The notes beneath the pieces were generated by a model that was not told the DNA's origin, searched no databases, and saw nothing but the letters and a program-made list of their open reading frames with translations. Position numbers and translations under genes: made by a program. 64,000 nucleotides of DNA from Escherichia coli (GTDB taxonomy: Bacteria; Pseudomonadota; Gammaproteobacteria; Enterobacterales; Enterobacteriaceae), in NCBI RefSeq assembly GCF_003334255.1, contig NZ_QOWU01000010.1. One strand, 5' to 3'. Positions 26,530 through 57,028 of the stretch are shown in pieces; the first letter of the stretch is position 1; the number at the start of each line of letters is the position of its first letter.

Positions 26530-27705
26530 TTACAGCTTGTTGTAAACACGCGCTAAACGGCCGTGGCCTTTGACAGTCACCGGTGATTCGTTGGCGGCAA
26601 TAAACGCTGATTCACCCGGTTTAAGCTGTAACTGCTGAGAACCTTTCCACAACGTTGCATCGCCTTCGACGCAGAACAAAATGGCGGCACTCTGCTGGCT
26701 AATGGTGGTTTCTTTATCACTAAGGTCATGCAGCGAGAAGGCAAAATCATCCACTGGAATCGGGAAGTCCAGTTCTGCACCTTGTTTCACCGGCTGGGTC
26801 AACAACTGGTTAGCCGGTTTGGCTTCGAATTTCACATTGGCAACCAGTTCCGGAATATCAATGTATTTAGGCGTCAGACCCGCACGCAGCACGTTATCGG
26901 AGTTTGCCATCACTTCCAGCGCCACGCCTTGCAGGTAAGCGTGCGGTGTTTCAGCGAACAGGAACATCGCTTCGCCAGGGTTCAATTTCACCACATTCAG
27001 CAATAGCGGGGAGAACAGACCGCTGTCTTCCGGGTAAAATTCAGAAATTAAACGAATCGTTTGCCACGGTTCACCCTGCTGGCTATCGAGGGCCGATTTT
27101 AAAATCGCCAGCGCGCGGGATTTTTCTTCACCCTGCATATTCAACAGGCTGGCGAACAGTTCGCTTAAACGTTCGGCATCAGGCTGTTGTAAAAAGTGAG
27201 CAATCGCCGGATGTGCACCTGCGACCGGCTGGAGTAGGGAGACAATCTCGGAAAATTCACGAAACGCGTTCATCGCAAGGAAAGGCGTCAGCGCAAAAAC
27301 CAGCTCCGGCTTGTGGTTAGGATCTTTATAGTTACGCTCGGCGGCATCCATCGGGATACCTGCGGCATTTTCTTTGGCAAAACCGATTTCAGAATTGTGT
27401 TTGTTTGGATGAACCTGAATGGAGAGTGGCTGTGCTGCGCATAATACTTTGAACAGGAAAGGCAGTTCGCCAAAGCGTTTGGCAACGGCCTCTCCGAGCA
27501 GAGTCGATTTATCACTCTCAATCACATCACGCAGTGAAACGATATCTCCGGCGGCATTCTGCACTCGTGAACTGCTTTTCGGATGTGCGCCCATCCACAG
27601 CTCGGCCATCGGCTGGCTGGACGGATTTTCCATACCATAAAGTTCAGTCAACGCCGTTTTGCTGCCCCAGGCATAGTTTTGCACTGAGTTAATGAGTTTT
27701 TGCAT
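26530..27705 (-). CDS. manA: Mannose-6-phosphate isomerase
   Basis: The track ORF is 417 aa. I trimmed it to the ATG at 27705 (MQKLINSVQNYAWGSKTALTELYG, 391 aa); the CAT at 27703-27705 was verified. Confidence 0.95.
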   Translation of the reverse strand: MQKLINSVQNYAWGSKTALTELYGMENPSSQPMAELWMGAHPKSSSRVQNAAGDIVSLRDVIESDKSTLLGEAVAKRFGELPFLFKVLCAAQPLSIQVHPNKHNSEIGFAKENAAGIPMDAAERNYKDPNHKPELVFALTPFLAMNAFREFSEIVSLLQPVAGAHPAIAHFLQQPDAERLSELFASLLNMQGEEKSRALAILKSALDSQQGEPWQTIRLISEFYPEDSGLFSPLLLNVVKLNPGEAMFLFAETPHAYLQGVALEVMANSDNVLRAGLTPKYIDIPELVANVKFEAKPANQLLTQPVKQGAELDFPIPVDDFAFSLHDLSDKETTISQQSAAILFCVEGDATLWKGSQQLQLKPGESAFIAANESPVTVKGHGRLARVYNKL

Positions 27706-27903
27706 GATCAATCCCTGTTTTAATGTGGAAATTAATCCCACTATTAAAGCAAGAATCCTACGGGAAGTAACCTGGAGCCGCAAAAAGTCGTACTAGTCTC
27801 AGTTTTTGTTAAAAAAGTGTGTAGGATATTGTTACTCGCTTTTAACAGGGCAACGGAACACCCGCCCAGAGCATAACCAAACCAGGCAGTAAGTGAGAGA
27901 ACA

Positions 27904-29550
27904 ATGTCAAACAAACCCTTTCATTATCAGGCTCCTTTTCCACTCAAAAAAGATGATACTGAGTATTACCTGCTAACCAGCGAACACGTTAGCGTATCTG
28001 AATTTGAAGGGCAGGAGATTTTGAAAGTCGCACCCGAAGCGTTAACTCTGTTGGCGCGCCAGGCGTTTCATGATGCGTCGTTCATGCTGCGTCCGGCGCA
28101 CCAACAACAGGTGGCCGACATTCTGCGTGACCCGGAGGCCAGCGAAAATGATAAATATGTGGCGCTGCAATTCCTGCGTAACTCCGACATCGCGGCGAAA
28201 GGCGTTCTGCCAACCTGTCAGGATACCGGCACCGCGATTATTGTTGGTAAAAAAGGGCAGCGTGTATGGACCGGTGGTGGTGATGAAGCGGCGCTGGCGC
28301 GCGGTGTCTATAACACTTATATCGAAGATAATCTGCGCTACTCGCAAAACGCGCCGCTGGATATGTATAAAGAAGTGAATACCGGCACCAATCTGCCAGC
28401 GCAGATCGATCTTTATGCCGTTGATGGCGACGAATACAAATTCCTCTGTATCGCCAAAGGTGGTGGTTCGGCAAACAAGACGTATCTCTATCAGGAAACC
28501 AAAGCGTTACTGACGCCGGGGAAACTGAAAAATTACCTGGTTGAGAAGATGCGCACGCTGGGTACGGCGGCCTGTCCTCCGTATCATATTGCGTTCGTTA
28601 TTGGTGGAACTTCTGCAGAAACGAACCTTAAAACGGTGAAACTGGCTTCCGCGAAATACTATGATGAACTGCCAACGGAAGGGAATGAGCACGGTCAGGC
28701 GTTCCGCGATGTGGAACTGGAAAAAGAATTGCTGATCGAAGCGCAAAATCTTGGTCTGGGTGCGCAGTTTGGTGGTAAATACTTCGCTCACGACATCCGC
28801 GTGATTCGCCTGCCACGTCACGGCGCATCCTGCCCGGTCGGTATGGGCGTCTCCTGCTCTGCTGACCGTAATATCAAAGCGAAGATCAACCGTCAGGGGA
28901 TCTGGATCGAAAAACTGGAACATAATCCAGGCAAATATATCCCGGAAGAGCTGCGCAAAGCGGGAGAAGGCGAAGCGGTGCGCGTTGACCTTAACCGTCC
29001 GATGAAAGAGATCCTCGCACAGTTGTCGCAGTATCCCGTTTCTACACGCTTATCGCTTAACGGCACGATTATCGTCGGTCGTGATATTGCTCACGCCAAA
29101 CTGAAAGAGCGGATGGATAACGGTGAAGGGCTGCCGCAGTACATCAAAGATCATCCGATTTACTACGCGGGTCCGGCCAAAACGCCGGAAGGTTATGCCT
29201 CCGGTTCTCTTGGCCCAACGACCGCCGGACGGATGGATTCTTATGTCGATCAACTGCAAGCGCAGGGCGGAAGTATGATCATGCTGGCGAAAGGCAACCG
29301 CAGCCAGCAGGTGACGGATGCCTGTAAAAAACACGGCGGCTTCTACCTTGGCAGTATCGGTGGTCCGGCCGCTGTATTGGCGCAGGGAAGTATTAAGTGC
29401 CTGGAATGTGTTGAATATCCGGAACTGGGAATGGAAGCCATCTGGAAAATTGAAGTGGAAGATTTCCCGGCGTTTATCCTTGTGGATGATAAAGGAAATG
29501 ACTTCTTCCAGCAGATACAACTCACACAATGCACCCGCTGTGTGAAATAA
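27904..29550 (+). CDS. fumA: Class I fumarate hydratase (aerobic, Fe-S)
   Basis: 548-aa ORF starting [30 protein letters not shown], recognised as K-12 FumA. Confidence 0.96.
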
Positions 29551-29556
29551 ACAGAG

Positions 29557-29579
29557 CCGCCCTTCGGGGCGGTTTTTTT
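29557..29579 (+). terminator. Rho-independent terminator after fumA
   Basis: CCGCCC-ttcg-GGGCGG hairpin followed by T7. Confidence 0.85.
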
Positions 29580-29692
29580 ACATGGCACGAAAGACCAAAC
29601 ATTTGTTATCAAATGGTAAATAATAAGTGAGCTAAAAGTTGCTTAACGAAAGCAAAACAGAAAGAAAAAATTAATCAGGTGAGGAGCAGGTC

Positions 29693-32055
<2,363 letters not shown>

Positions 32056-32097
32056 TTATAGCACAGTCGTGGTGACTTGACCATCGTGCGCGTAGTG

Positions 32098-33399
32098 TCA
32101 GGCAGAGGTAAATTGCGGGATGTTATGCCATAACGGCCAGCTAAACGAGAAGCGGGCACCACCCAGTTCGCTGGTGTCACAATTAACCGTACCGCCCATT
32201 GCCAGTGCTATAGAGTGGACAATTGCCAGCCCCAGCCCGCAGCCGCCGGTTGAGCGATCCCGGCTGGGATCGAGGCGAACAAAAGGTTCAAAGATATGTT
32301 CGCGGTTTTCTGGGGCAATCCCTGGGCCATCATCCTCAACAATTAATGTCGCTCTATTCCCCGACAGTAGCAGGCTGGTTTCAACCGTTGAATGGCAGTA
32401 CCGCAGGGCGTTATTGAGCAAATTATCCAGCACGCGCTCCATTAAGCGCATATCCAACGCCGCATAATGGCCTTGCACGAGCGTTTTTATCCGTACCGTT
32501 TTATCGGGCGTTACTGCCTGAATATCTGCCAGATGCGTTGACAGCCACAACGGCAGGTCTGGTTCGCTAAGATGAAGCTCGTTTTGTGGGCGATCGAGTC
32601 GGGCATAAGTCAGCAGCTCTTCAATTAAAGCTTCAAGTTGACTGATATCACGATTCAACGCCTGGGATTCGGCGGCGCTCAGGTTATCGCTCATCTCCAG
32701 TCGATAACGCAGGCGCACTAACGGTGTTCGCAGTTCGTGAGCGATACCGTCAATAAGCTGTTTTTTGCTGGCAATTAAGGCGTTGATATTGTCCGCCATC
32801 TGGTTAAATGCGACGCCAAGTCGTTCAAAGCTCGAACCCTCATCAAAGTGGATACGTTCATTGAGATGCCCATCGCCAAATCGTTGCGCCGCTGCTTCCA
32901 GTTTTAACATATCCTGCCAGTGCGGACGCATCCAGATAAACACCGGAAAGGCGAGGGAAATAGCAATAAAAGCGATCAGGGCGATATCCAGCAATCGCAT
33001 CTGATGGAGATAATAAAGATAAGGAACAGGACCAACTGCCAGCACGTAGTGGCTGCGCGGGATACGCTGCAAAAACGTGTACTGATCGTCCAGGGCGACA
33101 ATTTCGCCGCCACGCAGTCGGTGCATGGAAATATCATCAAGATGGTATTTACTCAGTGGCTCGACACGCAGATCGAAAGAGAGATTTAAATCCATCTCTT
33201 TCAGAGTTTTACCCCAGTCGTGTGGGGGGATCTCACGCAATTCGCTGCGCATCAGATACAGCGAACTGTTCATCAAATCATCCAGCGACTGTTTGCCCGC
33301 GCGTTCGGCGGTAAATTTGTACACCAGCCCAACCAGCAGAGACATCACAAGGAAGCAGACAAACAATAACAGGTAAAACTGGATAAACAGTTTTTTCAT
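32098..33399 (-). CDS. rstB: Sensor histidine kinase
   Basis: 433-aa ORF with an H-box (IAHELRTPL) and G-boxes (DDGPGI, GGCGLGLAIV), located downstream of rstA. Confidence 0.94.
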   Translation of the reverse strand: MKKLFIQFYLLLFVCFLVMSLLVGLVYKFTAERAGKQSLDDLMNSSLYLMRSELREIPPHDWGKTLKEMDLNLSFDLRVEPLSKYHLDDISMHRLRGGEIVALDDQYTFLQRIPRSHYVLAVGPVPYLYYLHQMRLLDIALIAFIAISLAFPVFIWMRPHWQDMLKLEAAAQRFGDGHLNERIHFDEGSSFERLGVAFNQMADNINALIASKKQLIDGIAHELRTPLVRLRYRLEMSDNLSAAESQALNRDISQLEALIEELLTYARLDRPQNELHLSEPDLPLWLSTHLADIQAVTPDKTVRIKTLVQGHYAALDMRLMERVLDNLLNNALRYCHSTVETSLLLSGNRATLIVEDDGPGIAPENREHIFEPFVRLDPSRDRSTGGCGLGLAIVHSIALAMGGTVNCDTSELGGARFSFSWPLWHNIPQFTSA

Positions 33400-42240: not shown

Positions 42241-42325
42241 TTTTATCATTTAGTGTTTTTTGCTGTTTCATAATGTTTCAGGCTGTGCATTATGTTTTTG
42301 ATTATCAACAGATTTGTGATTTTCC

Positions 42326-42395
42326 TTGTTCCAGCTTGTTTCACGTTGTAGCCCTTTGTGCAACGATCGGTGTAGTCACTGGTGTAGTCACTTTT
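42326..42395 (+). promoter_or_regulatory. Left subterminal repeat block: TTGTTCC..GTTGT motif plus tandem GGTGTAGTCAC x2 (candidate Int arm-type / AlpA sites)
   Basis: TTGTTCCAGCTTGTTTCACGTTGTA lies at 42326-42350 and GGTGTAGTCAC-T-GGTGTAGTCAC at 42369-42391. An imperfect direct copy of the whole block lies at 56969-57028. Confidence 0.55.
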
Positions 42396-42415: not shown

Positions 42416-43645
42416 GTGAGCAGAGCAATGAACAAACTGAGCGATACCTTGCTAAGGAAACTTCATGGTAAGCCAGCGGAGAAAAACACGTTTTATAGTG
42501 ATGGCGGAAACCTGAGCGTGAAATATTTAACATCAGGGAAATTGACCTGGTATTTCACATACAGGGCCGGAACGGGAAGGGAGACACGACCCGAACGCAT
42601 TAAGCTGGGAAGTTATCCTGATCTGAGCCTGAAAGCAGCCAGGGAAAAAGCCGCACAGTGTCGCACATGGCTGGCTGAGGGGAAAAATCCACGTCATGAG
42701 ATGAATTACACCGTACAGGAAGCGTTAAAGCCCGTAACGGTTGGCGATGCGCTCACCTACTGGCTTGAGTATTACGTAAAGGAAAACCGCGTGGATTATA
42801 TCGCCCTGAAAAGGCGACTTAATAATCACGTAATACAGCAGATTGGTGCTATGCCGCTGGATAAATGCGAGCTACGGCACTGGCTGGCCTGTTTTGACCA
42901 GGTGGCAAAGCGAACGCCTGTTACTGCCGGATTCGTGCTACAGGCGTGCAAACAGGCGCTTAAGTTCTGCCGTAGGCGGCGCTATGCAATCAGCAACGTT
43001 CTGGACGATCTGAACGTGGCGGACGTTGGGAAAAAACCGGATATAAGCGAACGTGTCTTAAGTAACAAAGAACTTGGCGAATTATTGCAGGCACTGGACA
43101 AAAAAATATTTTCCCCTTACTACGTCGCGTTAATCCGCCTCCTGATTGTCTTCGGAGCCAGGACGGTAGAACTGAGGCTATCGGAGATCGGGGAGTGGGA
43201 TTTTACGGAAATGCTATGGACCGTTCCGAAGGAGCACAGCAAAACGAAGGTCGCAATATTCCGGCCCATACCGGAAGCGATCCTGCCGTTCGTCACGCAG
43301 CTGGTGGAGCAGAACAGGCACACGGGCTTATTGCTGGGGGAAGTGAAACAGGAGGCCAGCGTATCGCAGTATGGAAGATTAGCGCACAGGAGGCTTAATC
43401 ATCCTCACTGGTCACTGCATGACATCCGGCGCACCTTTACAACCATGCTGAACGATTTAGGCGTTGATCCGCATGTCGTGGAGCAGCTTACAGGTCATCA
43501 GATGCCAGGAATGCAGCGAGTTTATAATCATTCCCGTTATCTGGATGCTAAACGCAATGCGCTGGATATGTGGATGGAGCGGTTAGGGATACTGGCGGGA
43601 ACACATGAAAACGTAACCACGCTACCAGTAGCCAGAAGAAAATAA
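42416..43645 (+). CDS. int: Tyrosine recombinase/integrase, P4-type (N-terminal arm-binding domain)
   Basis: 409-aa ORF with a GTG start (alternative ATG at 42428). The N-terminus LSDTLLRKL..KNTFYSDGGNLSVKYLTSGKLTWYFTYR is typical of P4-like integrases. The C-terminus HDIRRTFTTML..LTGHQ..VYNHSRY carries the catalytic R..HxxR..Y set. Confidence 0.9.
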   Translation: MSRAMNKLSDTLLRKLHGKPAEKNTFYSDGGNLSVKYLTSGKLTWYFTYRAGTGRETRPERIKLGSYPDLSLKAAREKAAQCRTWLAEGKNPRHEMNYTVQEALKPVTVGDALTYWLEYYVKENRVDYIALKRRLNNHVIQQIGAMPLDKCELRHWLACFDQVAKRTPVTAGFVLQACKQALKFCRRRRYAISNVLDDLNVADVGKKPDISERVLSNKELGELLQALDKKIFSPYYVALIRLLIVFGARTVELRLSEIGEWDFTEMLWTVPKEHSKTKVAIFRPIPEAILPFVTQLVEQNRHTGLLLGEVKQEASVSQYGRLAHRRLNHPHWSLHDIRRTFTTMLNDLGVDPHVVEQLTGHQMPGMQRVYNHSRYLDAKRNALDMWMERLGILAGTHENVTTLPVARRK

Positions 43646-43694: not shown

Positions 43695-43740
43695 CAACAT
43701 GCAACAATGAGCAACAATGCGGAACAACTACGAACAAGAG
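43695..43740 (-). promoter_or_regulatory. Inverted copy of the TTGTTC(C/G)..GTTGTT motif cluster downstream of int
   Basis: The plus strand reads CAACATGCAACAATGAGCAACAATGCGGAACAACTACGAACAAGAG, the reverse complement of CTCTTGTTCGTAGTTGTTCCGCATTGTTGCTCATTGTTGCATGTTG. Compare 49457-49484. Confidence 0.45.
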
Positions 43741-44019
43741 ACGAAAAAGTGTACGGATTTATAAGTAGCTGATTTTTAATGTGTTACTGGTTTTTTATAC
43801 ACTAGCGAATCACTCTTTAAATAGCGAGAAAAAAGGCATGAAACAATATTTTATGCCTTTGTATTAACATGAATTTAAATGATTTTATCCTGATTATTCC
43901 TGTTTCTGTAAACCATACGACCTCAACATTTGCCAACTCTGAATCATCCTGACACAATCAGACACATCCCAACGCAATAGAACACGAAATAACTCTTTAA
44001 GAAACGAAAGGGGGCAATA

Positions 44020-44208
44020 GTGTTAAGCACTGATCGGTTTATACGTGAAAAAGAATGCGAAAAGCTAACAGGCCTTAGCCGCTCATGCCGCTACCGCCTG
44101 GAAAAGGCCGGACAATTCCCATCACGTCGTAAACTTGGCGGTCGTTCCGTTGGCTGGTCTTTATCCGAGGTTCTGGCCTGGAAGGATAGCTGCAAGGCAG
44201 TTCATTAA
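44020..44208 (+). CDS. alpA: AlpA-family transcriptional regulator / excisionase-like DNA-binding protein
   Basis: 62-aa ORF (GTG start) with REKECEKLTGLSRSCRYRLEKAGQFPSRRKLGGRSVGWSLSEVLAWK. This matches the AlpA/Xis winged-helix pattern (..TGLSRST.YRL...G.FP.P.KLG.RSV.W...EV..W). Confidence 0.85.
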   Translation: MLSTDRFIREKECEKLTGLSRSCRYRLEKAGQFPSRRKLGGRSVGWSLSEVLAWKDSCKAVH

Positions 44209-44353
44209 TCACGCTGGCGGCACACAGCCGCCACACATCAATCATCTGAACACAGAGCTATAACCATGAAGATTGAATATACGCCAGAACGTGGGCGGGG
44301 ATTCGTTCGCCCTGGTGAGACTGGAAAACCACAAAATTGGGGTTTTTCAGGCA

Positions 44354-44383
44354 TAAAAAAAGCGGCCCCGAAATGGAGCCGCC
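44354..44383 (-). terminator. Rho-independent terminator for the leftward (repressor) transcript
   Basis: The minus strand reads GCGGCTCC-atttc-GGGGCCGC followed by T7. Confidence 0.65.
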
Positions 44384-44477
44384 TTTCTGAACAGATAACA
44401 CGCTGCGCCGTTTGTGTGTGTGATCCCAAACATAAGCACGGGGATGATAGCCGCTATCAGGCTGGTGGGCAATGCAA

Positions 44478-44666
44478 TCAGTCTGGTTCAGTTCGTTGCC
44501 ATACCTGCAATGAGCGCTTTTCCCTGTACTCTTTAAGGAATTGCTCAAGGGCAAAAGCACATGGCGCGAATCTTTCTGATTCATGCTCTATCTTTCTGCG
44601 CCGTCTTTTCCGTGCCGGTGATAATGTTTTGGTCAATTCTTTATCGGTCATTGTGTTGTCCTGCAT
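44478..44666 (-). CDS. Hypothetical small basic protein (57-62 aa), second gene of the leftward operon
   Basis: The ORF lies between the RHH gene and the leftward terminator. The alternative start at 44651 (MTDKELTK) has an AGGA 7-8 nt upstream, and an RKRRRRK patch is present. I recognise no homologue. Confidence 0.35.
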   Translation of the reverse strand: MQDNTMTDKELTKTLSPARKRRRRKIEHESERFAPCAFALEQFLKEYREKRSLQVWQRTEPD

Positions 44667-44708
44667 AGCAATGCGCCGTAATACCTCACACCACGGCGCT
44701 GATAGTGA

Positions 44709-45014
44709 TTATTCTGATTCTTTGGCCTTGCGGCGCTGTAGTTCTTCACGAGCGATGGCGATAAGTTGCCCGAGTTCTTCCGTAGCTTTAATACCAATTT
44801 TTTCCACTTGCGCCAATGCATCGAGAGAAGAAATCAGAGGATTTTCACTGCTTCCTTCTGCCTGGCGGCGGGCGATCTCCCCGCGCATGGCGGTTACTAT
44901 GAATCCGGCGTTGCTTTCGCCGTCCAGTTTTACGGATTCCATGCCATCAAAAGCATCATGTGGGATACGAATTGAAATCTGTTTTGATTTGTCGTTGATA
45001 GTGTTTTTTGCCAT
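44709..45014 (-). CDS. Putative ribbon-helix-helix (Arc/CopG-like) repressor of the island
   Basis: Start set at the ATG at 45014, 6 nt from AGGAGA at 45021-45026. The 101-aa protein MAKNTINDKSKQISIRIPHDAFDGMESVKLDGESNAGFIVTAMRGEIARRQ has a beta-strand/helix/helix pattern typical of RHH. It is divergent from the rightward operon. Confidence 0.5.
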   Translation of the reverse strand: MAKNTINDKSKQISIRIPHDAFDGMESVKLDGESNAGFIVTAMRGEIARRQAEGSSENPLISSLDALAQVEKIGIKATEELGQLIAIAREELQRRKAKESE

Positions 45015-45036
45015 GTGCATTCTCCTAAACAAAAGA

Positions 45037-45113
45037 TGTGATTCAGTATACACAAAAAAGAATCACAAAAAACACTTGACCTGTGATTCAGTTGAATTTA
45101 ATTTAAATCACAC
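45037..45113. promoter_or_regulatory. Divergent switch region: two inverted-repeat operators TGTGATT(C)-N15-17-(G)AATCACA flanking a TTGACC(-35)/TAATTT(-10) rightward promoter candidate
   Basis: O1 is TGTGATTC at 45037-45044 paired with GAATCACA at 45060-45067. O2 is TGTGATTC at 45082-45089 paired with AATCACA at 45106-45112. TTGACC at 45076-45081 is spaced 17 bp from TAATTT at 45099-45104. Confidence 0.5.
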
Positions 45114-45201
45114 CTCAGTAAGAGGATGTAAACGACAACGCCCCGAACTGTTTGCGGCAGTAGCGGGGCGTCTAACCAAACCGTTAACAGGAGTAACGAT
45201 T

Positions 45202-45399
45202 ATGGCTGGAACACAGCATACCCCACGTCTGGCGCACACACAAACTGCCTTTGTGTGGCGTTTTCTGGCACTAAGTGCCGGAGAATCTCAAATCATCCAC
45301 GTAACCGCCTGGACGGAACGCGAAGCGCGTAGCCGTTGCCCGTCCGGTTGTGTTGCTGTATTCGCCGCCCGTATTCGTCAGGGGGTGTGCCATGCCTGA
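45202..45399 (+). CDS. Icd-like (P4 host cell-division inhibitor-like) small protein
   Basis: 65-aa ORF preceded by AGGAG. FVWRFLALSAGESQIIHVTAWTEREARSRCPSGCVAVFAARIR fits the Icd-like pattern (F.W.F.A....I.A.SE.EAR......V..FA.R) as I recall it. It is the only plausible part of the 377-aa track ORF. Confidence 0.5.
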   Translation: MAGTQHTPRLAHTQTAFVWRFLALSAGESQIIHVTAWTEREARSRCPSGCVAVFAARIRQGVCHA

Positions 45400-45712
45400 C
45401 ATGACCAATTACCAGTACCTGATTAATCCGCATTTTAACTGTGAGCATGATATTGCTAAAAAGGTTTATTCCGCTGCGGATGGGGCTACTGACAATATAT
45501 CAATGGCTGTTTCGTCAATTGGTAGCCTGATGTGGTATGCGTCAGAAAATAAGGAATATGACGAAAAGGCCATGCGCATTGATATGGGTAATATTGGTTT
45601 GTTACTGGCAATGCTTGGACATTTTGATATTTCGTTACGGTGCACCATTGAAAATGCCACAGATGCATTAAATGCTATAAAGAAAGCGAATACTGATTCA
45701 AATCGGGGATAA
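45392..45712 (+). CDS. Hypothetical protein (106 aa)
   Basis: The ATG at 45392 overlaps the preceding stop, suggesting translational coupling. I recognise no family. Confidence 0.5.
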   Translation: MPDMTNYQYLINPHFNCEHDIAKKVYSAADGATDNISMAVSSIGSLMWYASENKEYDEKAMRIDMGNIGLLLAMLGHFDISLRCTIENATDALNAIKKANTDSNRG

Positions 45713-45718
45713 ATAATC

Positions 45719-46018
45719 ATGAGAACGTATTTATCTGGCTTTACTGCCAGCGGTTATGCACACCCCAAAATTATCCCCGGCGCTATTTATCTGGATAAGA
45801 ACGGTAACAGAGTAACGGTAAAAGAACTGATGTTTGACCGTGTGTATTTTATTCGTGATGGCTATTCATTTCATAGTTCGCTGAACGTGGAGATCTTTAT
45901 TAGCAGATTCCGGCGGGAAATCCCGCTTTCCAGAAATAACCATGTGTCATGTATGGATGTTGATAAAAAACTACAGGAACTGAAAAACATGATTGCCGCG
46001 TGGAGAGAGCAGAAATGA
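45719..46018 (+). CDS. Hypothetical protein, possibly DUF4222-like (99 aa)
   Basis: The core GAIYLDKNGNRVTVKELMFDRVYFIRDGYSF resembles the DUF4222 pattern seen in P4-like islands (recalled from memory). Its stop overlaps the primase start (ATGA). Confidence 0.45.
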   Translation: MRTYLSGFTASGYAHPKIIPGAIYLDKNGNRVTVKELMFDRVYFIRDGYSFHSSLNVEIFISRFRREIPLSRNNHVSCMDVDKKLQELKNMIAAWREQK

Positions 46019-47832
46019 AAAAAGCGCCAAATTTAAAACACCAGCCGCGTGACAAAATGACGGAAGTCATCATTTTTGCGGGTAGTGATGCGTGGGCACA
46101 TGCGAAGCAGTGGCAGGAACAGGACGGGCGACTGGCTGGCGATAACGTGCCACCTGTCTGGCTTGGAGAGCAACAACTTGCCGAACTGGACAACCTGCAA
46201 ATCGTACCGGACGGACGCTATCGCGTGCGTCTCTACCAGGCGGGGTTATTGCGTCCGGGGCTTGTTAATACCATCGGGCAGAAACTGGCAGCGGCAGGTG
46301 TCAGGGATGCTGATTATTACCCTGAAGGAATGCACAGCCAGAAACGGGAGAACTGGCGCGAATATCTGGAACGTGAGCGGGGAGAGCTGGCGGAAAAGAA
46401 AAAGGTAGTTGAACTGCCTGTAAAGAAAAAAGAGCGGGTAAAAGACGATAACGCTTCATCACTGGCGCTTAACCAGATGGGAGCAAGTCAACGCGGCGAA
46501 GTTCTCCTGGCACATTATGGCGGTGAACTGGCGATTCATGCTGACTCTGACACTGTTCACTATTACAACGGCGTTGTATGGGAGCCAGTACAGGATAAAG
46601 AATTACAGCGAGCTATGGCGCAGATTTTCATTGATGCGGAGATCAGCTATTCGCAGAACGCCATTAAATCGGCGGTCGATACCATGAAGTTAAGTTTGCC
46701 TGTAATGGGGAATACAGCCCGTAACCTGATTGGATTCAGTAACGGTGTTTTTGATACCCGGACAGGCGATTTTCGGGAGCATAACAAAAACGACTGGTTG
46801 TTAATTGCCAGTGAATTACCTTTCAGCCCACCAGCAGAGGGGGAAACGCTGGCAACACATGCGCCGAATTTCTGGAAGTGGTTACGCCGTTCGGTGGCTG
46901 AGAATGACCGCAAGGCGGATCGCGTACTGGCTGCATTATTCATGGTGCTGGCGAACCGGTACGACTGGCAGTTATTCATTGAGGTAACAGGTCCAGGGGG
47001 AAGTGGTAAAAGCGTGATGGCGGAGATTTGCACCATGCTGGCGGGTAAGGCCAACACGGTATCGGCAAGCATGAAGGCGCTGGAAGATGCCAGGGAACGC
47101 GCGTTAGTGGTTGGCTTTTCGCTGATTATCATGCCGGATATGACCCGTTACGCTGGTGATGGCGCAGGAATTAAGGCCATTACAGGCGGTGACAAGGTGG
47201 CAATCGACCCGAAGCATAAAGCCCCCTACTCAACACGCATTCAGGCGGTAGTGTTGGCGGTGAACAATAACGCCATGTCATTCAGTGACCGCAGCGGGGG
47301 GATTTCACGTCGTCGGGTGATATTCAATTTTTCGGAGGTTGTACCGGAAAACGAACGCGACCCCATGCTGGCAGAAAAAATAGAAGGAGAGCTGGCGGTT
47401 GTGATTCGCCACCTGCTTACTCGTTTTTCTGACCAGGACGCAGCTAAACGCCTGCTGTATGAGCAGCAGAAATCAGAAGAAGCTCTGGTGATAAAACGCG
47501 AGGGCGATTCGCTGGTGGACTTCTGCGGCTATCTCATGTCGTCGGTAATGTGTGATGGTCTGTTAGTGGGTAATGCCGAAATTATTCCGTTCAGTCCGCG
47601 CAGGTATCTTTATCACGCCTATCTGGCATATATGAGGGCACACGGATTCGGTAAACCTGTAACACTGACGCGCTTCGGTAAAGATATGCCGGGGGCAATG
47701 GCGGAATATGGCAGGGAGTATATGAAACGGAAAACGAAGCACGGTTTGCGTTCAAACGTGACACTGACGGAGGAATCAGAAGACTGGATGCCATCATGTG
47801 TATCGGTCACTAATGACGATAGCAAAAATTAA
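46015..47832 (+). CDS. Replication initiator: primase/helicase of the P4-alpha / D5 NTPase type (PICI pri-rep)
   Basis: About 605 aa with Walker A VTGPGGSGKS and a Walker B-like FSLIIMPDM. The C-terminal half resembles the phage/plasmid primase P4-family domain, and the iteron origin follows immediately. Confidence 0.8.
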   Translation: MKKAPNLKHQPRDKMTEVIIFAGSDAWAHAKQWQEQDGRLAGDNVPPVWLGEQQLAELDNLQIVPDGRYRVRLYQAGLLRPGLVNTIGQKLAAAGVRDADYYPEGMHSQKRENWREYLERERGELAEKKKVVELPVKKKERVKDDNASSLALNQMGASQRGEVLLAHYGGELAIHADSDTVHYYNGVVWEPVQDKELQRAMAQIFIDAEISYSQNAIKSAVDTMKLSLPVMGNTARNLIGFSNGVFDTRTGDFREHNKNDWLLIASELPFSPPAEGETLATHAPNFWKWLRRSVAENDRKADRVLAALFMVLANRYDWQLFIEVTGPGGSGKSVMAEICTMLAGKANTVSASMKALEDARERALVVGFSLIIMPDMTRYAGDGAGIKAITGGDKVAIDPKHKAPYSTRIQAVVLAVNNNAMSFSDRSGGISRRRVIFNFSEVVPENERDPMLAEKIEGELAVVIRHLLTRFSDQDAAKRLLYEQQKSEEALVIKREGDSLVDFCGYLMSSVMCDGLLVGNAEIIPFSPRRYLYHAYLAYMRAHGFGKPVTLTRFGKDMPGAMAEYGREYMKRKTKHGLRSNVTLTEESEDWMPSCVSVTNDDSKN

Positions 47833-47844
47833 ACTTATGGAATA

Positions 47845-48069
47845 ACTGTTCACCACTGTTCACCCTGTCATAAATATCTTTTGTATCAGTATGTTATAGG
47901 GTGAACAGTTATTTATGAACTGTTCACCAAACTATTCACTGTTCACCTTTTTGATTGTTTATTGAGCTTCAAGGGTGAACAGTGGTGAATAGTTGGTGAA
48001 TAGTTTTTGTGAAACTGTTCACCCCTTAACATTATGAATTAAAAGATAAAATATCAAAAGGTGAACAGG
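47845..48069. repeat. Island replication origin: at least 10 copies of the 10-bp iteron ACTGTTCACC in both orientations, plus an AT-rich tract
   Basis: Direct copies start at 47845, 47855, 47919, 47938 and 48014. Inverted copies (GGTGAACAGT/G) start at 47900, 47974 and 48060. Degenerate copies (GGTGAATAGT) start at 47984 and 47995. An AT-rich stretch spans 48030-48058. Confidence 0.8.
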
Positions 48070-48119
48070 TGAAGGGTTAAAACGCAAAAATTTTAATTTA
48101 CTGCTGTGAGATAAAGCCT

Positions 48120-48365
48120 ATGACAGCGAAGCACACAAAAAAATCACAATCGCACGCCCTTGATTTGACGGAACACTGGTTAAGGGTGTCGATAAAAATC
48201 ATCGACCGCAACGCCGGGGAAGGATATGCGAAAGCACATCCCGAACTGATTAGCTCATTCATGACAACGGCAGCTGCAAACTTTGCCACGCTGACAGAAC
48301 GGGAGATTGCCGAAGCGGAACAGGTGACAACCATCAACGTTAAAACCGGAGAGCAGACAGCATGA
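48120..48365 (+). CDS. Hypothetical protein (81 aa)
   Basis: The ORF's stop overlaps the ssb start (ATGA at 48362-48365). I recognise no family. Confidence 0.5.
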   Translation: MTAKHTKKSQSHALDLTEHWLRVSIKIIDRNAGEGYAKAHPELISSFMTTAAANFATLTEREIAEAEQVTTINVKTGEQTA

Positions 48366-48772
48366 CAGCACAGATAGCAGCTTACGGGCGGCTGGTGGAC
48401 GACCCGCAGGTAAAACAGACCAGTAAGGGCACACCGATGACGCTGGCGCGTATGGCGGTATCGTTGCCATGTAGTCAGGCGCAGGATGGGCAGGCGACGT
48501 TATGGCTATCGGTCATCGCATTTGGTAAGCAGGCCGACTTCCTGGCTAAACATCAAAAAGGCGACGTTGCCAGCGTATCCGGCACGATGCAGGTCAGCCA
48601 GTGGACCGGACAGAACGGGGAAACGCGGCAGGGTTATCAGGTTATTGCAGACAGCGTAATCAGTGCCCGTGCGGCACGTCCTGGCGGGAACAGACGCAAA
48701 ACCACAGGCACACAGGGTAATCAGCCACCAGCGGGAGGCGATGACCCTTACGGTGACGGTATTCCGTTCTGA
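48362..48772 (+). CDS. ssb: Single-stranded DNA-binding protein (short, island-encoded)
   Basis: 136 aa with an OB-fold-like N-terminus (AAYGRLVDDPQVKQTSKGTPMTLARMAV), a Gly/Pro/Gln-rich linker and the acidic tip DDPYGDGIPF typical of bacterial and phage SSBs. Confidence 0.75.
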   Translation: MTAQIAAYGRLVDDPQVKQTSKGTPMTLARMAVSLPCSQAQDGQATLWLSVIAFGKQADFLAKHQKGDVASVSGTMQVSQWTGQNGETRQGYQVIADSVISARAARPGGNRRKTTGTQGNQPPAGGDDPYGDGIPF

Positions 48773-48782
48773 GGGGGTGGCG

Positions 48783-49055
48783 ATGGTACATGACCGCATA
48801 GCGGAAGAACTCGAGGCGAAAGGCTTTTACCGGAGGGCGGCGGCGCGATGGGGTGAAGTCATGCTGCTGGTGGAGACAGACAAGGAACGGCATCAGGTTA
48901 CGATGCGACGGCTGGAATGTTCCAGGAAGGCACAGAAGCCACCGGAGCCGCCGGATAACTTCGGAGACCTGAGAAAGGCAGTAGATCGCACTTATGCTGA
49001 AATGGGTATAGATGGTGTAAGCGATGAAATATGGCGTAATTACCCAGACAGCTAA
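48783..49055 (+). CDS. PerC-family transcriptional activator-like protein (90 aa)
   Basis: The internal ATG at 48783 is preceded by GAGGGGG. MVHDRIAEELEAKGFYRRAAARWGEVML matches the PerC/Pch N-terminal pattern (..AE.LE..G.YRRAA.RW..V) as I recall it. Confidence 0.55.
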   Translation: MVHDRIAEELEAKGFYRRAAARWGEVMLLVETDKERHQVTMRRLECSRKAQKPPEPPDNFGDLRKAVDRTYAEMGIDGVSDEIWRNYPDS

Positions 49056-49060
49056 TCAAC

Positions 49061-49085
49061 AGCCGGAGAAATCCGGCTTTTTTTG
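49061..49085 (+). terminator. Rho-independent terminator (copy 1 of a near-identical pair)
   Basis: AGCCGGA-gaaa-TCCGGCT hairpin followed by T8. Confidence 0.85.
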
Positions 49086-49179
49086 CACCAGTTGAAACGG
49101 TATGGCGCATTACCGGGTTTTCGTCACGGTCAGGCATAGTTACTATCTGAAACAAACAGACACAACAGAGGAAAAAACA

Positions 49180-49404
49180 ATGCCGATGAAATTTGATGAG
49201 ATATTAAAACAGCGTGATAAATACCATGCTGACAACATGGAGACGATGAGCATCAATGATTACCGCGCATTCCTGGAGACGGGCGCACTGATTGAAAAGG
49301 ATCAGCATGGTTTTGTGAGATGTGCTCTGTCCGGTGAAATGCTGGCGGTAAATCCTGAACAGATAGATGCATTGATAGAATTTCTGAAAGGGATCAGGGA
49401 CTGA
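49180..49404 (+). CDS. Hypothetical protein (74 aa) in a terminator-bracketed cassette
   Basis: The ATG at 49180 is preceded by GAGGAAAAAA, giving MPMKFDEILKQRDKYHADNMETMSINDYRAF. The gene is flanked by twin terminators. I recognise no family. Confidence 0.5.
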   Translation: MPMKFDEILKQRDKYHADNMETMSINDYRAFLETGALIEKDQHGFVRCALSGEMLAVNPEQIDALIEFLKGIRD

Positions 49405-49414
49405 GCACGCATAC

Positions 49415-49436
49415 AGCCGGAGCAATCCGGCTTTTT
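49415..49436 (+). terminator. Rho-independent terminator (copy 2)
   Basis: AGCCGGA-gcaa-TCCGGCT hairpin followed by T5. It is identical at 23 of 24 positions to the terminator at 49061. Confidence 0.85.
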
Positions 49437-49456
49437 GTCATTTTTTGTAAATTATT

Positions 49457-49484
49457 TGTTCGTGGTTGTTCCACGTTGTTCACT
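49457..49484 (+). promoter_or_regulatory. Internal copy of the island-end motif (TTGTTCGTGGTTGTTCCACGTTGTTCAC) upstream of the capsid operon
   Basis: It shares TTGTTCCACGTTGTT with 56969-56983 and resembles 42326-42350 and, in inverted orientation, 43695-43740. Confidence 0.45.
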
Positions 49485-49558
49485 GACAGGATCGGCATAT
49501 TTTACCCGAACTGAATCATGAGTATTCTCGCCCGTGGTGCCAGGACGCTGGGGCCACT

Positions 49559-49696
49559 TTCCCGCCTGTTAATGTGCTCGCCAATATTCATTACCAGGCG
49601 GGAAAACGATCGGTGCGATTGCTGATTTCCTTATGAAAAACGGTTGAGTTTTTGCCGCGTCCTGGAGTTCCTTACTTAACCCCAGGACTTTTTTTT
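49559..49696 (+). promoter_or_regulatory. Structured leader of the capsid operon: 10-bp stem-loop plus a terminator-like hairpin ending in T8 directly before the capsid ATG
   Basis: TTCCCGCCTG (49559-49568) pairs with CAGGCGGGAA (49595-49604). GTCCTGG (49659-49665) pairs with CCAGGAC (49682-49688) and is followed by T8 (49689-49696). The only SD-like AGGA (49684-49687) lies inside the descending arm. Confidence 0.55.
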
Positions 49697-50854
49697 ATGC
49701 CGAGAATAATCGAATTACGCCAGCAGAAAACCGCCATTAAAAATCAGATGCGCGACATGCTGGAGAACGCGGAAAAAGAAAACCGCAGCCTTAACGATGC
49801 AGAGGGCGCAAAATTTGACGAATTACGCGCTAAAGCTGAATCCCTCGATAAAGACATTTCCCGCCTTGAAGCCATTGCAGACGAAGAGCGCAGCAAGCCA
49901 GGTAAAAGCAGCCAGACCACTGACCCGGCAGAACTCCGCAACTACATCCTGACAGGTGAAACCCGCGCATTAAGTACAGGCGTTCCCGCTGATGGTGGTT
50001 ATACCGTTATCCCCGAACTGAACACCGAAATCATGCGAATGCTGACGGATGAATCCACCATGCGCCGCATCTGTACCGTGAAGAAAATCAGCAGCAACGA
50101 GTTTAAGCAGCTTGTTTCCGCTGGCGGTGCGACCGTTAACCACGGTGAAGAGGGTAAGACACGCGAACAGACCAGCACCCCGCAGATTAACGAGGTGAGC
50201 ATTAAGCTGTATCCGGTCTATGCGTACCCGCGCACCACACAGGAAATCGTGGATTTTTCCGATGTGGACATCCTTTCATGGCTGACGGGTGAGATTGGCG
50301 ACACCTTCACGGAAACCGAAGAAAGCGATCTGGTTGTGGGCGACGGTGACAAAAAAGCAAAAGGTTTTTTATCCGTACCCCGTGCAGAGAAGAACGACAA
50401 AGAGCGTGATTTTGGTACGTTGCAGGTAATTAAACCTTCCGAATCTCTGGCGTGGACATCTGCGGACCCGCTGATCGACCTGAAATTTGCATTACGTAAA
50501 AAATACCGCAAAAACGCGGTCTGGGTGGTTAACTCCACGACGGCGGCAAAACTTCAGAAGGTGAAGAACGCGAACGGTGATTACATCTGGCGCGACCGTT
50601 TACAGGCGGGTGATCCTGATACGTTGCTGGGCCTTCCGGTCGAATATCTGGAGTTTATGCCTGATAACGTTATTGCCCTGGGTGACTTCAAACGCGGTTA
50701 CTACATTGTTGATCACGAAACAGGTGTTCGCACCAGACCGGACAACCTCACAGAGCCGGGCTTCATCAAAATTTTCACGCAGAAATATTTAGGCGGTGGC
50801 GTGGTGGATTCGAACGCGATCAAGATTCTGGAACTGCCACAGGACGACGATTAA
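49697..50854 (+). CDS. Major capsid protein, HK97 fold/family, with an N-terminal coiled-coil (delta/scaffold-like) domain
   Basis: 385 aa from the ATG at 49697 (the track starts at 49652). The N-terminus IELRQQKTAIKNQMRDMLENAEKENRSLNDAEGAKFDELRAKAESLDKDISRLEAI is coiled-coil. The body (..GGYTVIPELNTEI.. YPRTTQEIVDFSDVDILSWL.. GLPVEYLEFMPD..) is typical of HK97-family capsid proteins, and the protease and portal genes are adjacent. Confidence 0.85.
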   Translation: MPRIIELRQQKTAIKNQMRDMLENAEKENRSLNDAEGAKFDELRAKAESLDKDISRLEAIADEERSKPGKSSQTTDPAELRNYILTGETRALSTGVPADGGYTVIPELNTEIMRMLTDESTMRRICTVKKISSNEFKQLVSAGGATVNHGEEGKTREQTSTPQINEVSIKLYPVYAYPRTTQEIVDFSDVDILSWLTGEIGDTFTETEESDLVVGDGDKKAKGFLSVPRAEKNDKERDFGTLQVIKPSESLAWTSADPLIDLKFALRKKYRKNAVWVVNSTTAAKLQKVKNANGDYIWRDRLQAGDPDTLLGLPVEYLEFMPDNVIALGDFKRGYYIVDHETGVRTRPDNLTEPGFIKIFTQKYLGGGVVDSNAIKILELPQDDD

Positions 50855-50864
50855 CAGCATACAG

Positions 50865-50884
50865 AAGGGGCTTAAAAGCCCCTT
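50865..50884 (+). terminator. Hairpin after the capsid gene (attenuator/terminator candidate)
   Basis: AAGGGGC-ttaaaa-GCCCCTT hairpin followed by TAGTGTTTT. Confidence 0.45.
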
Positions 50885-50893
50885 TAGTGTTTT

Positions 50894-56890: not shown

Positions 56891-56968
56891 TATCGACATT
56901 AACGCCCCTCATGAATTGGTGCGCTTCCCCCTGGAAAGATGATCCGCCTGTATATTTCTTGTGTCTAT

Positions 56969-57028
56969 TTGTTCCACGTTGTTTCATACAGTGCACCGAA
57001 CGGTGTAGTCACTGGTGTAGTCATTTTG
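56969..57028 (+). promoter_or_regulatory. Right subterminal repeat block (TTGTTCCACGTTGTTTCA ... GGTGTAGTCAC-T-GGTGTAGTCAT)
   Basis: This is an imperfect direct copy of 42326-42395. The tandem 11-mers lie at 57002-57012 and 57014-57024. Confidence 0.55.

Follow-up and report, generated by a model that had tools for sequence, protein, structure and literature searches.

The 64,000-nt stretch of Escherichia coli DNA analysed here (contig NZ_QOWU01000010.1; the window) carries the capsid-forming PICI (cf-PICI) EcCIEDL933, a phage satellite of E. coli O157 described in 10.1101/2022.09.08.507074, and positions 49437-49696 are the control region of its capsid and packaging operon. The element is ~15 kb in size, has its own att site and possesses int, alpA (PF05930), a D5-type primase gene and an SSB gene, as is characteristic of EcCIEDL933-type cf-PICIs. 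Its late genes encode an HK97-type capsid protein, a protease, the portal, connectors and an HNH protein, and terS and terL are present as well; tail and lysis genes are absent from the gene set of the island. Judged by gene order, the cos region likely lies between the HNH gene and terS, and ori-like iterons are found at 47831-48048.

The gene upstream of the control region, orf74, belongs to the early/accessory genes (stop codon TGA, 49402-49404). It is followed by an intrinsic terminator (Table 1), which was also recovered by a consensus terminator scan and insulates the late control region. A second copy of this terminator (96% identical) is present at 49059-49082. Between the terminator and the capsid gene there are 260 nt of non-coding DNA. 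A first-pass annotation of this stretch, made from the sequence alone, had listed the terminator, the 260 bp, an array of repeats, a 10-bp stem, a hairpin with its T8, the capsid ATG and an SD-like AGGA, and direct reading confirmed the coordinates of all of them; a fourth array unit (TTGTAA, 49445-49450), the hairpin H1 and the complementarity between regions 2 and 3 (see below) had been overlooked. The capsid start assigned by PGAP is ATG 49697, and all capsid homologues start at the equivalent ATG. The possible alternative start at TTG 49652 is rejected, since the T-run in front of the ATG consists of seven T in 21 of 29 close relatives, which breaks the frame.

Table 1. Features of the late control region of EcCIEDL933 and of its first structural gene (window coordinates).
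Feature	Position	Strand	Remarks
Intrinsic terminator of orf74	49415..49436	+	7-bp stem 49415-49421/49426-49432, GCAA loop, TTTT; -12.0 kcal/mol
Phased array, four units	49445..49481	+	TTGTAA 49445; TTGTTC 49456, 49466, 49476; spacing 11, 10, 10 bp
Transcription start	49491	+	Cappable-seq, uninduced EDL933, 7/8 conditions; gTSS 1687918 (+), gene 8700
Predicted sigma-70 promoter P2	49501..49528	+	-35 TTTACC 49501-49506, 16-nt spacer, -10 TATTCT 49523-49528
H1	49534..49557	+	GUGGu.gCCAG-GACG-CUGGg.gCCAC, invariant GACG loop; -15.6 kcal/mol, z -3.4
Region 2	49540..49548	+	CCAGGACGC; top and 3' half of H1; complementary to 49657-49665 (9 nt)
H2	49558..49605	+	long helix adjoining H1; -22.6 kcal/mol, z -5.6
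Region 3	49657..49665	+	GCGUCCUGG; 5' arm of H3; partner 49682-49688 (H3) or 49540-49548
H3 + U8	49659..49696	+	H3 49659-49688, U8 49689-49696, SD-like AGGA 49684-49687
Major capsid gene, first of late operon	49697..50854	+	HK97 fold family; PF05065, E = 2e-61
Terminator-like hairpin between capsid and protease genes	50864..50885	+	kept in most lineages

The leader is 100% identical to that of strain EDL933. The transcription start at 49491, taken from Table S5 of PMC10469882 and mapped onto the window coordinates, results in a leader of 206 nt to the ATG. Together with the strong covariation of H1 and H2 (see below), it bears out the earlier proposal of a structured, transcribed leader of ~200 nt with a start upstream of 49559. 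Relative to this start, the TTGTTC units fall at -35 to -10, and a -10-like TATTTT (49498-49503) lies at +8 to +13; by inspection, neither the start nor the TATTTT element is conserved in other lineages. As for the predicted promoter P2 (predicted start ~49534-49536), all 56 representatives have TAnnnT at precisely 11 to 6 nt 5' of H1, in the form of nine different hexamers, and a T-rich hexamer is found 16 nt upstream of the P2 -10 in nearly all of them (clearly -35-like, as TTTACw, in 23 and TTTTCT in another 16). The published Cappable-seq data from uninduced cells contain no start at P2. Note that H1 is flush with the 5' end of the transcript if the P2 start is used, but not if transcription begins at 49491.

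The TTGTAA box of the array is present 87-89 nt 5' of H1 in 51 of 56 lineages; the three units after it are lineage-dependent and track the AlpA subtype in part. Further copies of the TTGTTC array can be found at 42326-42350 (+), 43702-43737 (-) and 56959-56984 (+), and matches to the array motif with up to two mismatches number 21 versus 7.1 expected (none of 100 shuffles reaches 21). Such extra copies are restricted to islands whose AlpA resembles that of the window. The array is presumed to be a site for a DNA-binding protein of the island, and the candidate that would bind there is AlpA (62 aa, PF05930, winged-helix). Covariation of AlpA and the array is only partial, an identical TTGTTC array being found with four AlpA clusters, and we therefore abandoned the idea of a strict correspondence. 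The copy upstream of alpA is in inverted orientation and separated from the mapped alpA start by ~250 nt, and hence does not resemble a simple activator site. Another candidate, the orf74 product (phrog_1957) as a dedicated leader-binding factor, was set aside because no more than 39 of 76 lineages have its gene in the 1.5 kb upstream, and because its presence is only weakly associated with that of the leader (34/22/5/15).

For the region as a whole, the predicted folding energy is -92.6 kcal/mol (z = -3.9), and none of 200 shuffles was as good. H1, which contains asymmetric bulges, shows compensatory changes in six of its nine pairs across lineages. H2 is a 17-bp helix (49558-49574 with 49589-49605, 94% complementary) with a perfect 10-bp stem at its base; at the same position, other lineages have at least ten unrelated stem sequences, with compensatory changes in nine of ten pairs. 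For the 19 pairs of H1 and H2 together, 96.7% of cells are paired and 15 pairs have changed on both sides. Their covariation score is 0.418, compared with at most 0.126 for slid partners, none of 500 shuffles reached 0.418, and RNAalifold independently found the same structure. The comparison among related islands that the first-pass annotation had suggested thus revealed strong covariation of both helices. Furthermore, G.U pairs outnumber A.C pairs in H1 and H2 (13 versus 3), consistent with a + strand RNA.

With a covariance model built from H1-H2, exactly one copy was detected in each island, invariably on the + strand and immediately ahead of the capsid gene. The diversity of the leader comes from metagenome and IMG/VR scans (the scan of genome contigs gave only five useful loci); in the phage database, the leader is present in three records only, i.e., a 16.5-kb cf-PICI-like record, a 3.8-kb unannotated Salmonella record and a 106-kb Klebsiella phage record. 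In 21 of 76 lineage representatives it is replaced by a leader of ~40 nt, so that the device is dispensable. Neither the window leader nor a typical leader from another lineage (L005) has a meaningful match in Rfam 15 at E values up to 10, and the literature was searched for a small RNA reported from this locus without useful result. The leader is a so far undescribed conserved family of cis-regulatory structured RNA with three hairpins and a length of 160-206 nt.

The third hairpin, H3, is built of GTCCTGG (49659-49665) and CCAGGAC (49682-49688), and its stem reaches 11 positions, one of them an A.C mismatch; variants of the 3' arm in the lineages L099 and L105 keep the pairing. Most lineages have retained a hairpin whose 3' arm carries an SD-like GGA 9 nt ahead of the ATG, in line with the earlier observation that the Shine-Dalgarno sequence is buried in the last hairpin, as is the AGGA here. 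The same hairpin had been called terminator-like. In terms of energy this is correct, as H3 (-12.7 kcal/mol, z -3.3) is level with other terminators of the island (-12.0 and -13.8 kcal/mol); the consensus terminator scan, which allowed only perfect stems and loops of 3-8 nt, did not list it. However, among the 76 lineage representatives only two have a U7-8 tract after H3, namely this lineage and L046/L333, and the terminator character is therefore not the conserved function.

The 5' arm of H3 has a second possible partner. Designating the arms of H1 as segments 1 and 2 and those of H3 as segments 3 and 4, regions 2 and 3 can form a long-range duplex (-19.8 kcal/mol), whose nine pairs are 97.8% paired in the alignment versus at most 64% when slid. 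Column 15 of the alignment has its partner in column 10 when H1 forms, and in column 131, a bulge of H3, when the 2:3 helix forms. The 15-131 pair is U-A in 49 sequences, G-C in four and C-G in two, and is broken in none; indeed, the three columns change jointly (A/U/A in 49 sequences, C/G/C in four, G/C/G in two), which amounts to only three sequence states, i.e., at least two independent changes. Variants with A to G in the loop result in G.U pairs in the 2:3 helix. The pairings 1:2 and 3:4 on the one hand and 2:3 on the other are mutually exclusive, as in attenuators, and are supported by covariation.

In folding predictions, an RNA ending at 49665 adopts the 2:3 helix and the full-length RNA adopts H1 and H3, the 2:3 fold of the full-length window RNA being 8.3 kcal/mol less stable. 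This flip with length was predicted for 36 of 55 representative leaders; in the other 19, the truncated leader keeps H1. In the lineage L046, even the full-length leader has 2:3 as its minimum-energy fold. The transcript from 49491 retains H1 in minimum-energy predictions. As to a possible sensor, no leader peptide, protein or ligand was found. No translated leader ORF was detected either; the sole mini-ORF (49634-49648, MKNG) lacks an SD and shows no conservation.

We propose, giving it about an even chance, that the leader is attenuator-like, with two exclusive folds that would switch the expression of the operon and, in this lineage, decide on termination at H3 and U8. Transcription would begin inside or just past the phased TTGTwn array. 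If H1 (1:2) and H3 (3:4) form together, H3 would hide the weak Shine-Dalgarno sequence and, with the U7-8 tract of this lineage, is predicted to terminate transcription just before the capsid ATG. If region 2 pairs with region 3, H3 could not form and the ribosome-binding site would be free. The nascent RNA is predicted to favour 2:3 until the 3' arm of H3 has been synthesised, so the choice of the fold is probably kinetic; it may be set by the speed of H1 displacement, by the transcript start or by another factor. The interpretation given in the first-pass annotation is thus partly supported: gating after initiation is plausible through alternative pairing of a cis-acting RNA, but an antitermination factor finds no support.

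A tentative alternative, which we regard as possible though clearly less probable, is a static leader that does not switch. H1 and H2 would only shield a very abundant mRNA at its 5' end, H3 would tune translation, and H3 with U8 would be, in this lineage, a leaky attenuator or insulator lowering basal capsid expression. The predicted start at P2, which places H1 directly at the 5' end, would suit such a function, as would basal capsid production without induction and the fact that H1 with H3 is the minimum-energy fold in 54 of 55 full-length leaders; simple stoichiometric attenuation is suggested by the further terminator-like hairpin 3' of the capsid gene. Nevertheless, a static leader does not explain why the GACG loop and the CGUC of H3 are invariant while the remaining leader drifts, nor why the bulged base of H3 changes jointly with an H1 pair, and given the mapped start, H1 is not at the 5' end.

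The attenuator-like reading may also be specified by promoter choice, in that the identity of the 5' end and not a ligand would decide on termination (termination for the 49491 start, read-through for an AlpA-activated P2); we consider this version unlikely. The transcripts of uninduced cells would come from a weak promoter built of the TTGTTC units, and their 5' extension (CGGCA, 49493-49497) would pair next to region 3 and leave H1 closed. H3 and U8 would then form, and most transcripts would end as a leader RNA of ~200 nt. AlpA bound to the array would occlude the 49491 promoter and activate the conserved promoter 43 nt downstream, whose transcripts would begin with H1, fold into the 2:3 antiterminator and read into the capsid operon.

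Processive antitermination of the lambda PR'-qut-tR' type appears quite unlikely. In this scheme, a TTGTTC-bound protein would load on RNA polymerase paused at TATTTT, and the loaded polymerase would ignore H3 and U8 as well as the terminator 3' of the capsid gene. The layout relative to the 49491 start, the two terminator-like hairpins in the operon and the precedent systems (PMC7969949, PMC9371919) speak for it. However, no ORF of the island matches Q, N or another antiterminator family in Pfam or PHROGs. AlpA, which had been put forward for this role, shares only the name with Pseudomonas AlpA, a 21Q-like antiterminator with eight helices and contacts at residues 128-142 according to the structural paper: the 62-aa winged-helix protein of the island has no detectable sequence similarity to it, and a PDB sequence search with the island protein retrieved only 8c3t (a 73-aa protein of the AlpA family) and no Pseudomonas AlpA chain. 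The intrinsic terminator between promoter and late genes that is typical of a Q module is present, as H3 and U8, in only two lineage representatives and missing from 74 of 76. Furthermore, tail-less EcCIEDL933 and KpCIDSM30104 capsids form without helper induction (10.1101/2025.02.11.637232). Capsid production therefore needs no helper factor, which argues against a Q-like protein and conflicts with the earlier suggestion that the satellite senses its helper at this point.

We regard as very improbable that H1-H2 is a put-like cis RNA, binding the transcribing polymerase and making it resistant to terminators. A transcript with two adjacent stem-loops at its 5' end or close to it and terminator-like hairpins downstream is reminiscent of put, and 41 of 55 leader-bearing lineages have a strong T-run 3' of the capsid gene, compared with 7 of 18 lacking the leader, an association that is confounded by relatedness. 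Nevertheless, the sequence of H2 varies with complete freedom, whereas put needs specific bulges and non-canonical pairs, and the H1-H2 covariance model (filters off, E up to 10) had no match in the 6 kb of HK022 (27000-33000) expected to hold the immunity region, putL and putR, a stretch in which the put sites themselves were not located. The put relationship suggested earlier is thus unsupported. Finally, it is hardly credible that the element works as DNA (an operator palindrome, a cos/pac site or an origin): H1 and H2 are inverted repeats in DNA as well, but they accept G.U pairs only when read as + strand RNA, the bulges of H1 are asymmetric, both helices are situated 3' of the mapped start, and the ori-like iterons and the likely cos region are elsewhere.

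The cf-PICIs are recently recognised, widespread phage satellites that assemble capsids of their own, tails being all they borrow. How their capsid operon is switched on is not described in two cf-PICI preprints, in which the terms 'promoter' and 'terminator' are absent. The control region is now delimited, with a mapped start and a conserved predicted promoter, and its leader RNA, with two exclusive predicted folds, is common to most enterobacterial cf-PICIs and a candidate new RNA family for Rfam. This raises the testable question of whether an RNA switch is behind the helper-independent production of tail-less capsids.

The closest parallels are the attenuators of the trp/pyrBI type, which likewise consist of four segments with the exclusive pairings 1:2, 2:3 and 3:4; here too, the nascent leader is predicted to favour 2:3 until segment 4 has been made, and in this lineage the 3:4 hairpin and a U-tract directly precede the first structural gene. 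In contrast to them, the search for a leader peptide or another sensor was negative, a variable helix of 48-60 nt (H2) separates segments 2 and 3, and in most cf-PICI lineages 3:4 only sequesters the ribosome-binding site, without a U-tract. Lambda PR'-qut-tR' and the Pseudomonas aeruginosa AlpA system share with EcCIEDL933 the repeat element in or next to the late promoter, a leader of ~200 nt, a terminator and late genes; unlike there, the island has no Q-like protein, its terminator is lineage-specific and the helper is not required. The put sites of HK022, whose RNA works via the beta' zinc-binding domain of RNA polymerase and needs no protein factors, resemble the leader in having two adjacent stem-loops near the transcript start, and the head genes are of the HK97/HK022 type, but there is no covariance-model match, H2 is not bound to a sequence and the leader pairs with its own downstream hairpin. 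The order of elements is that of 5' UTRs of the ompA type, in which one hairpin near the 5' end and another one precede the ribosome-binding region of a strongly expressed structural gene, though the invariant loop and the three-way covariation point here to alternative pairing and not to protection alone. In P4 immunity, complementarity to leader segments of a satellite (CI RNA with seqA and seqC) decides on termination as well; there, a processed trans-acting RNA promotes termination in the early operon, whereas in EcCIEDL933 the pairing takes place within a single late-operon leader and is predicted to prevent termination.

The island occupies about 15 kb of the window and is EcCIEDL933, the prototype capsid-forming PICI (cf-PICI; 10.1101/2022.09.08.507074). 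Gene annotation and family searches found no tail genes in it. The same module sits between roxA and phoQ in E. coli O157:H7 (RefSeq genomes); strain EDL933 is 100% identical to window positions 49437-49700, and about 360 of 5,426 complete E. coli genomes carry the leader 5' of the capsid gene at ≥94% identity. The early region differs from that of EDL933: from alpA to the capsid gene there are 5677 nt in the window (44020-49697) versus 6201 nt in EDL933 (NZ_CP008957.1, 1681923-1688124; locus L382), and the Icd-like domain that terminates a 377-aa ORF of the window stands alone in EDL933 as a 65-aa gene. Of the conserved early genes the last is orf74, which is without match in Pfam or NCBIfam; it lies within the 1.5 kb preceding the capsid gene in 39 of 76 lineage representatives (about 170 related loci clustered at 90% identity), and its presence is weakly associated with that of the leader. 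A 24-nt terminator cassette, ACAGCCGGAGmAATCCGGCTTTTT, is present twice (96% identity), 3' of the PerC-like gene and 3' of orf74, as if accessory genes came as cassettes with their own terminator. Related cf-PICIs of E. coli OkiPb01703 (L002) and ETEC4090 (L003) lie inside a prophage terminase large-subunit gene, the halves of which flank the island in a helper-embedded configuration.

Features of the island and of the capsid leader (window positions)
Feature	Position	Remark
Island-end repeats	42319-42394; 56952-57027	76 nt, 76% identity
Tyrosine integrase	42416-43645
Inverted TTGTTC array	43702-43737	about 250 nt upstream of the alpA starts
AlpA	44020-44208	62 aa, PF05930
D5-type primase; SSB; PerC-like protein; small conserved ORF
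Inverted GGTGAACAG iteron arrays	47831-48048	directly 3' of the primase gene; probably the island replication origin
Terminator cassettes	49059-49082; 49413-49436
orf74	49180-49404	74 aa, phrog_1957, function unknown
Repeat array	49445-49481	TTGTAA, then three TTGTTC; spacing 11, 10, 10 bp
Predicted second promoter	49501-49506 (-35); 49523-49528 (-10)	from comparison of representatives
H1 (arms, regions 1 and 2)	49534-49557
H2	49558-49605
2:3 helix	49540-49548 / 49657-49665	CCAGGACGC with GCGUCCUGG; 9 bp, duplex -19.8 kcal/mol
Mini-ORF	49634-49648	ATG AAA AAC GGT TGA
H3 (arms, regions 3 and 4), then U8	49659-49688; 49689-49696
HK97-type head and packaging module	49697-50854 (capsid)	capsid, protease, portal, head completion protein, connector, HNH, terS, terL
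Hairpin and T-run between capsid and protease genes	50864-50885	GC-rich

On the best-supported reading, the conserved leader RNA, which is previously undescribed, would act as an attenuator-like conformational switch; we infer its function, here and below, from sequence, covariation, energy predictions and one published start site. The coordinates in the first-pass annotation were all correct on direct reading of the sequence. The control region folds better than all 200 of 200 shuffled versions (z = -3.9), and H1, H2 and H3 taken singly have z-scores of -3.3 to -5.6. These three domains are shared by 55 of the 76 representatives, the other 21 being without any structured leader. The common form of H1 is GUGGCaCUCA-GACG-UGAGccGCCAC; that of the window, GUGGugCCAG-GACG-CUGGggCCAC, differs from it by three compensatory pairs. 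H2 follows directly, with a lower stem of 9-16 bp whose sequence is wholly different in at least ten lineages (e.g., GGCCGUUUAA, GUCCACCCGG, GGCCGUCAG, GCCCGCCCC, GGCAGCUUAC). H3, separated from H2 by a linker, reads GGUUUC(a)CGU...ACGGAAACC in most lineages, where its 3' arm carries an SD-like GGA 9 nt ahead of the AUG. A mini-ORF in the lineage-specific part of the window leader lacks a Shine-Dalgarno sequence and is not conserved among the other lineages.

Covariation among related islands, proposed as a check in the first-pass annotation, was indeed found in H1 and H2: their 19 pairs are 96.7% paired in a MAFFT alignment, and 15 of them have changes on both sides. The covariation score was 0.418; sliding the partners gave at most 0.126, and 500 shuffles never scored as high. 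Unguided RNAalifold returned the same helices. There are 13 G.U pairs against 3 A.C pairs, the bias that a + strand RNA should show. With a covariance model of H1-H2 (the window scores 47.9 bits, E = 9e-9), each island gives a single hit, in every case immediately 5' of the capsid gene. Rfam 15 has no meaningful match, at E up to 10, to the window leader or to a typical one (L005), and the leader turns up in only three records of the phage database: one of 16.5 kb resembling a cf-PICI, one from Salmonella without annotation, and one of 106 kb for a Klebsiella phage.

The GACG loop of H1 and a CGUC in the H3 5' arm, both invariant, are complementary, and the complementarity extends beyond these four bases; in most lineages AGACGUGAG pairs with UUCACGUCU. 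The nine pairs of this 2:3 helix are 97.8% paired over 55 sequences, compared with ≤64% when slid, and two independent A-to-G changes in the H1 loop give G.U pairs in it. Alignment column 15 has column 10 as its partner in H1 and column 131, an unpaired bulge within H3, as its partner in the long-range helix. Columns 15, 10 and 131 change jointly (A/U/A in 49 sequences, C/G/C in 4, G/C/G in 2, no broken pair), which is the signature expected of two mutually exclusive folds, putatively 1:2 plus 3:4, or 2:3. In minimum-energy predictions, RNA from 49534 to 49665 takes the 2:3 helix and the full leader H1 plus H3, with the 2:3 fold 8.3 kcal/mol higher; 36 of 55 representatives flip in this way, and for one (L046) even the full-length leader has the 2:3 fold as its minimum. 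In the transcript from the mapped start at 49491, pairing of the 5' end next to region 3 is predicted to keep H1 in place.

H3 (-12.7 kcal/mol) is as stable as the island's three other terminator-like hairpins. GUCCUGG...CCAGGAC followed by U7-8 is limited to the window lineage and one other (L046/L333); in all remaining leaders a hairpin covers the ribosome-binding site and no U-tract follows. Thus, of the proposed terminator-like hairpin burying the Shine-Dalgarno sequence, the occlusion is conserved across leaders and the terminator character is confined to these two lineages; judged from these sequences, the terminator is not the conserved part of the leader. Rare changes in the H3 3' arm of the window lineage keep pairing (C to U gives G.U, another repairs an A.C mismatch). 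In the EcCIEDL933 lineage the switch would additionally have acquired a U-tract, so that it is predicted to act probably on both transcription and translation. In the T-run, 21 of 29 close relatives have T7 and 8 have T8; this length change would move the upstream TTG at 49652 out of frame, and the ATG is the start in PGAP and in all homologues. This rules out the TTG as capsid start, and ATG 49697 stands.

Cappable-seq of EDL933 mapped a single capsid-gene start, 1687918 (+), in seven of eight uninduced culture conditions (PMC10469882 Table S5). It corresponds to window 49491, 206 nt 5' of the ATG; the leader is therefore of roughly 200 nt, as had been claimed, and begins upstream of 49559. 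Measured from this start, the three TTGTTC units span -35 to -10, and the -10 region (TTCACT) is poor. All 56 leader-bearing representatives have a TAnnnT hexamer, in nine versions, exactly 11 to 6 nt ahead of where H1 begins, and nearly all have a T-rich hexamer 16 nt further upstream (a clear -35-like TTTACw in 23, TTTTCT in 16); in 51 of the 56, a TTGTAA box is located 87-89 nt before H1. The predicted start of this second, conserved promoter, at about 49534, is the first base of H1, and no start was mapped there in uninduced EDL933 cells in the published data; we infer an activator-dependent late promoter. Every lineage has a terminator that shields the control region from upstream transcription, placed either before the TTGTAA box (as in the window) or between array and -35. 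In the lineages with TTACCC-type repeats (L005, 3960-3990, with equivalents in L006 and L007) the array and -35 are separated by a terminator-like hairpin, CCCCUGUCUCUGACGGGGG+UUUUCUUU, whose 5' arm overlaps the last repeat unit.

What the first-pass annotation called the island-end motif is this four-unit array. Its first unit is near-invariant across genera and the next three are lineage-dependent (e.g., TTGTTC in the window; nGTAC/TTTAC/TTACC in Rosenbergiella, Citrobacter and Erwinia islands). Array type partly tracks AlpA subtype, yet the identical TTGTTC array occurs with four different AlpA clusters. The late-promoter array of L002/L003 is identical to that of the window despite differing integrase (41% identity) and AlpA (60%). 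Islands with window-like AlpA are the only ones to have extra array copies, located at the ends of the island and in the interval from int to alpA; this makes AlpA, an excisionase-type winged-helix protein, a reasonable candidate for the array binder. PICI genes are known to be activated by AlpA, which is needed for EcCIEDL933 induction (PMC6092414; 10.1101/2022.09.08.507074). The end repeats consist of TTGTTC-type units followed by two GGTGTAGTCAC copies and are probably excisionase and integrase arm-type sites. In EDL933, alpA starts are at 1681887 and 1681896, 36 and 27 nt before the start codon (PMC10469882 Table S5), about window 43984-43993; the inverted array upstream of them is not at a typical activator position.

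The first-pass interpretation is right in its main lines: the leader is transcribed and structured, and could gate the capsid operon once transcription has begun. On the agents that it named, it is wrong or unsupported. Counted from the 49491 start, the region may have a Q-like layout: the repeats fall within the promoter, TATTTT (+8 to +13) resembles a -10 element, and a terminator spans +169 to +206. So far this layout is without a candidate protein. No island ORF matches a known antiterminator family in Pfam or PHROGs, which leaves the proposed antitermination by an island factor unsupported. The hairpin after the capsid gene is found at the same place in most related loci (GGGGCUUCGGCCCC+UUUU in most lineages); its T-run is strong in 41 of 55 leader-bearing lineages versus 7 of 18 without the leader. 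Such a hairpin is compatible with simple stoichiometric attenuation and equally with processive antitermination. A put-like cis RNA is unsupported, as the H1-H2 covariance model has no match in HK022 27000-33000, the 6 kb expected to hold the immunity region, where the put sites themselves were not located. Helper sensing at the leader is unlikely, since EcCIEDL933 forms tail-less capsids without helper induction, and KpCIDSM30104 does so in a non-lysogen (10.1101/2025.02.11.637232). The precedent for AlpA as antiterminator, Pseudomonas AlpA (PMC7969949, PMC9371919), is a coincidence of names: in a PDB sequence search with the island AlpA, the sole related chain was a 73-aa AlpA-family protein, and the Pseudomonas protein is a Q-like antiterminator with an eight-helix, 21Q-like fold, whereas the island AlpA is a 62-aa protein of PF05930.
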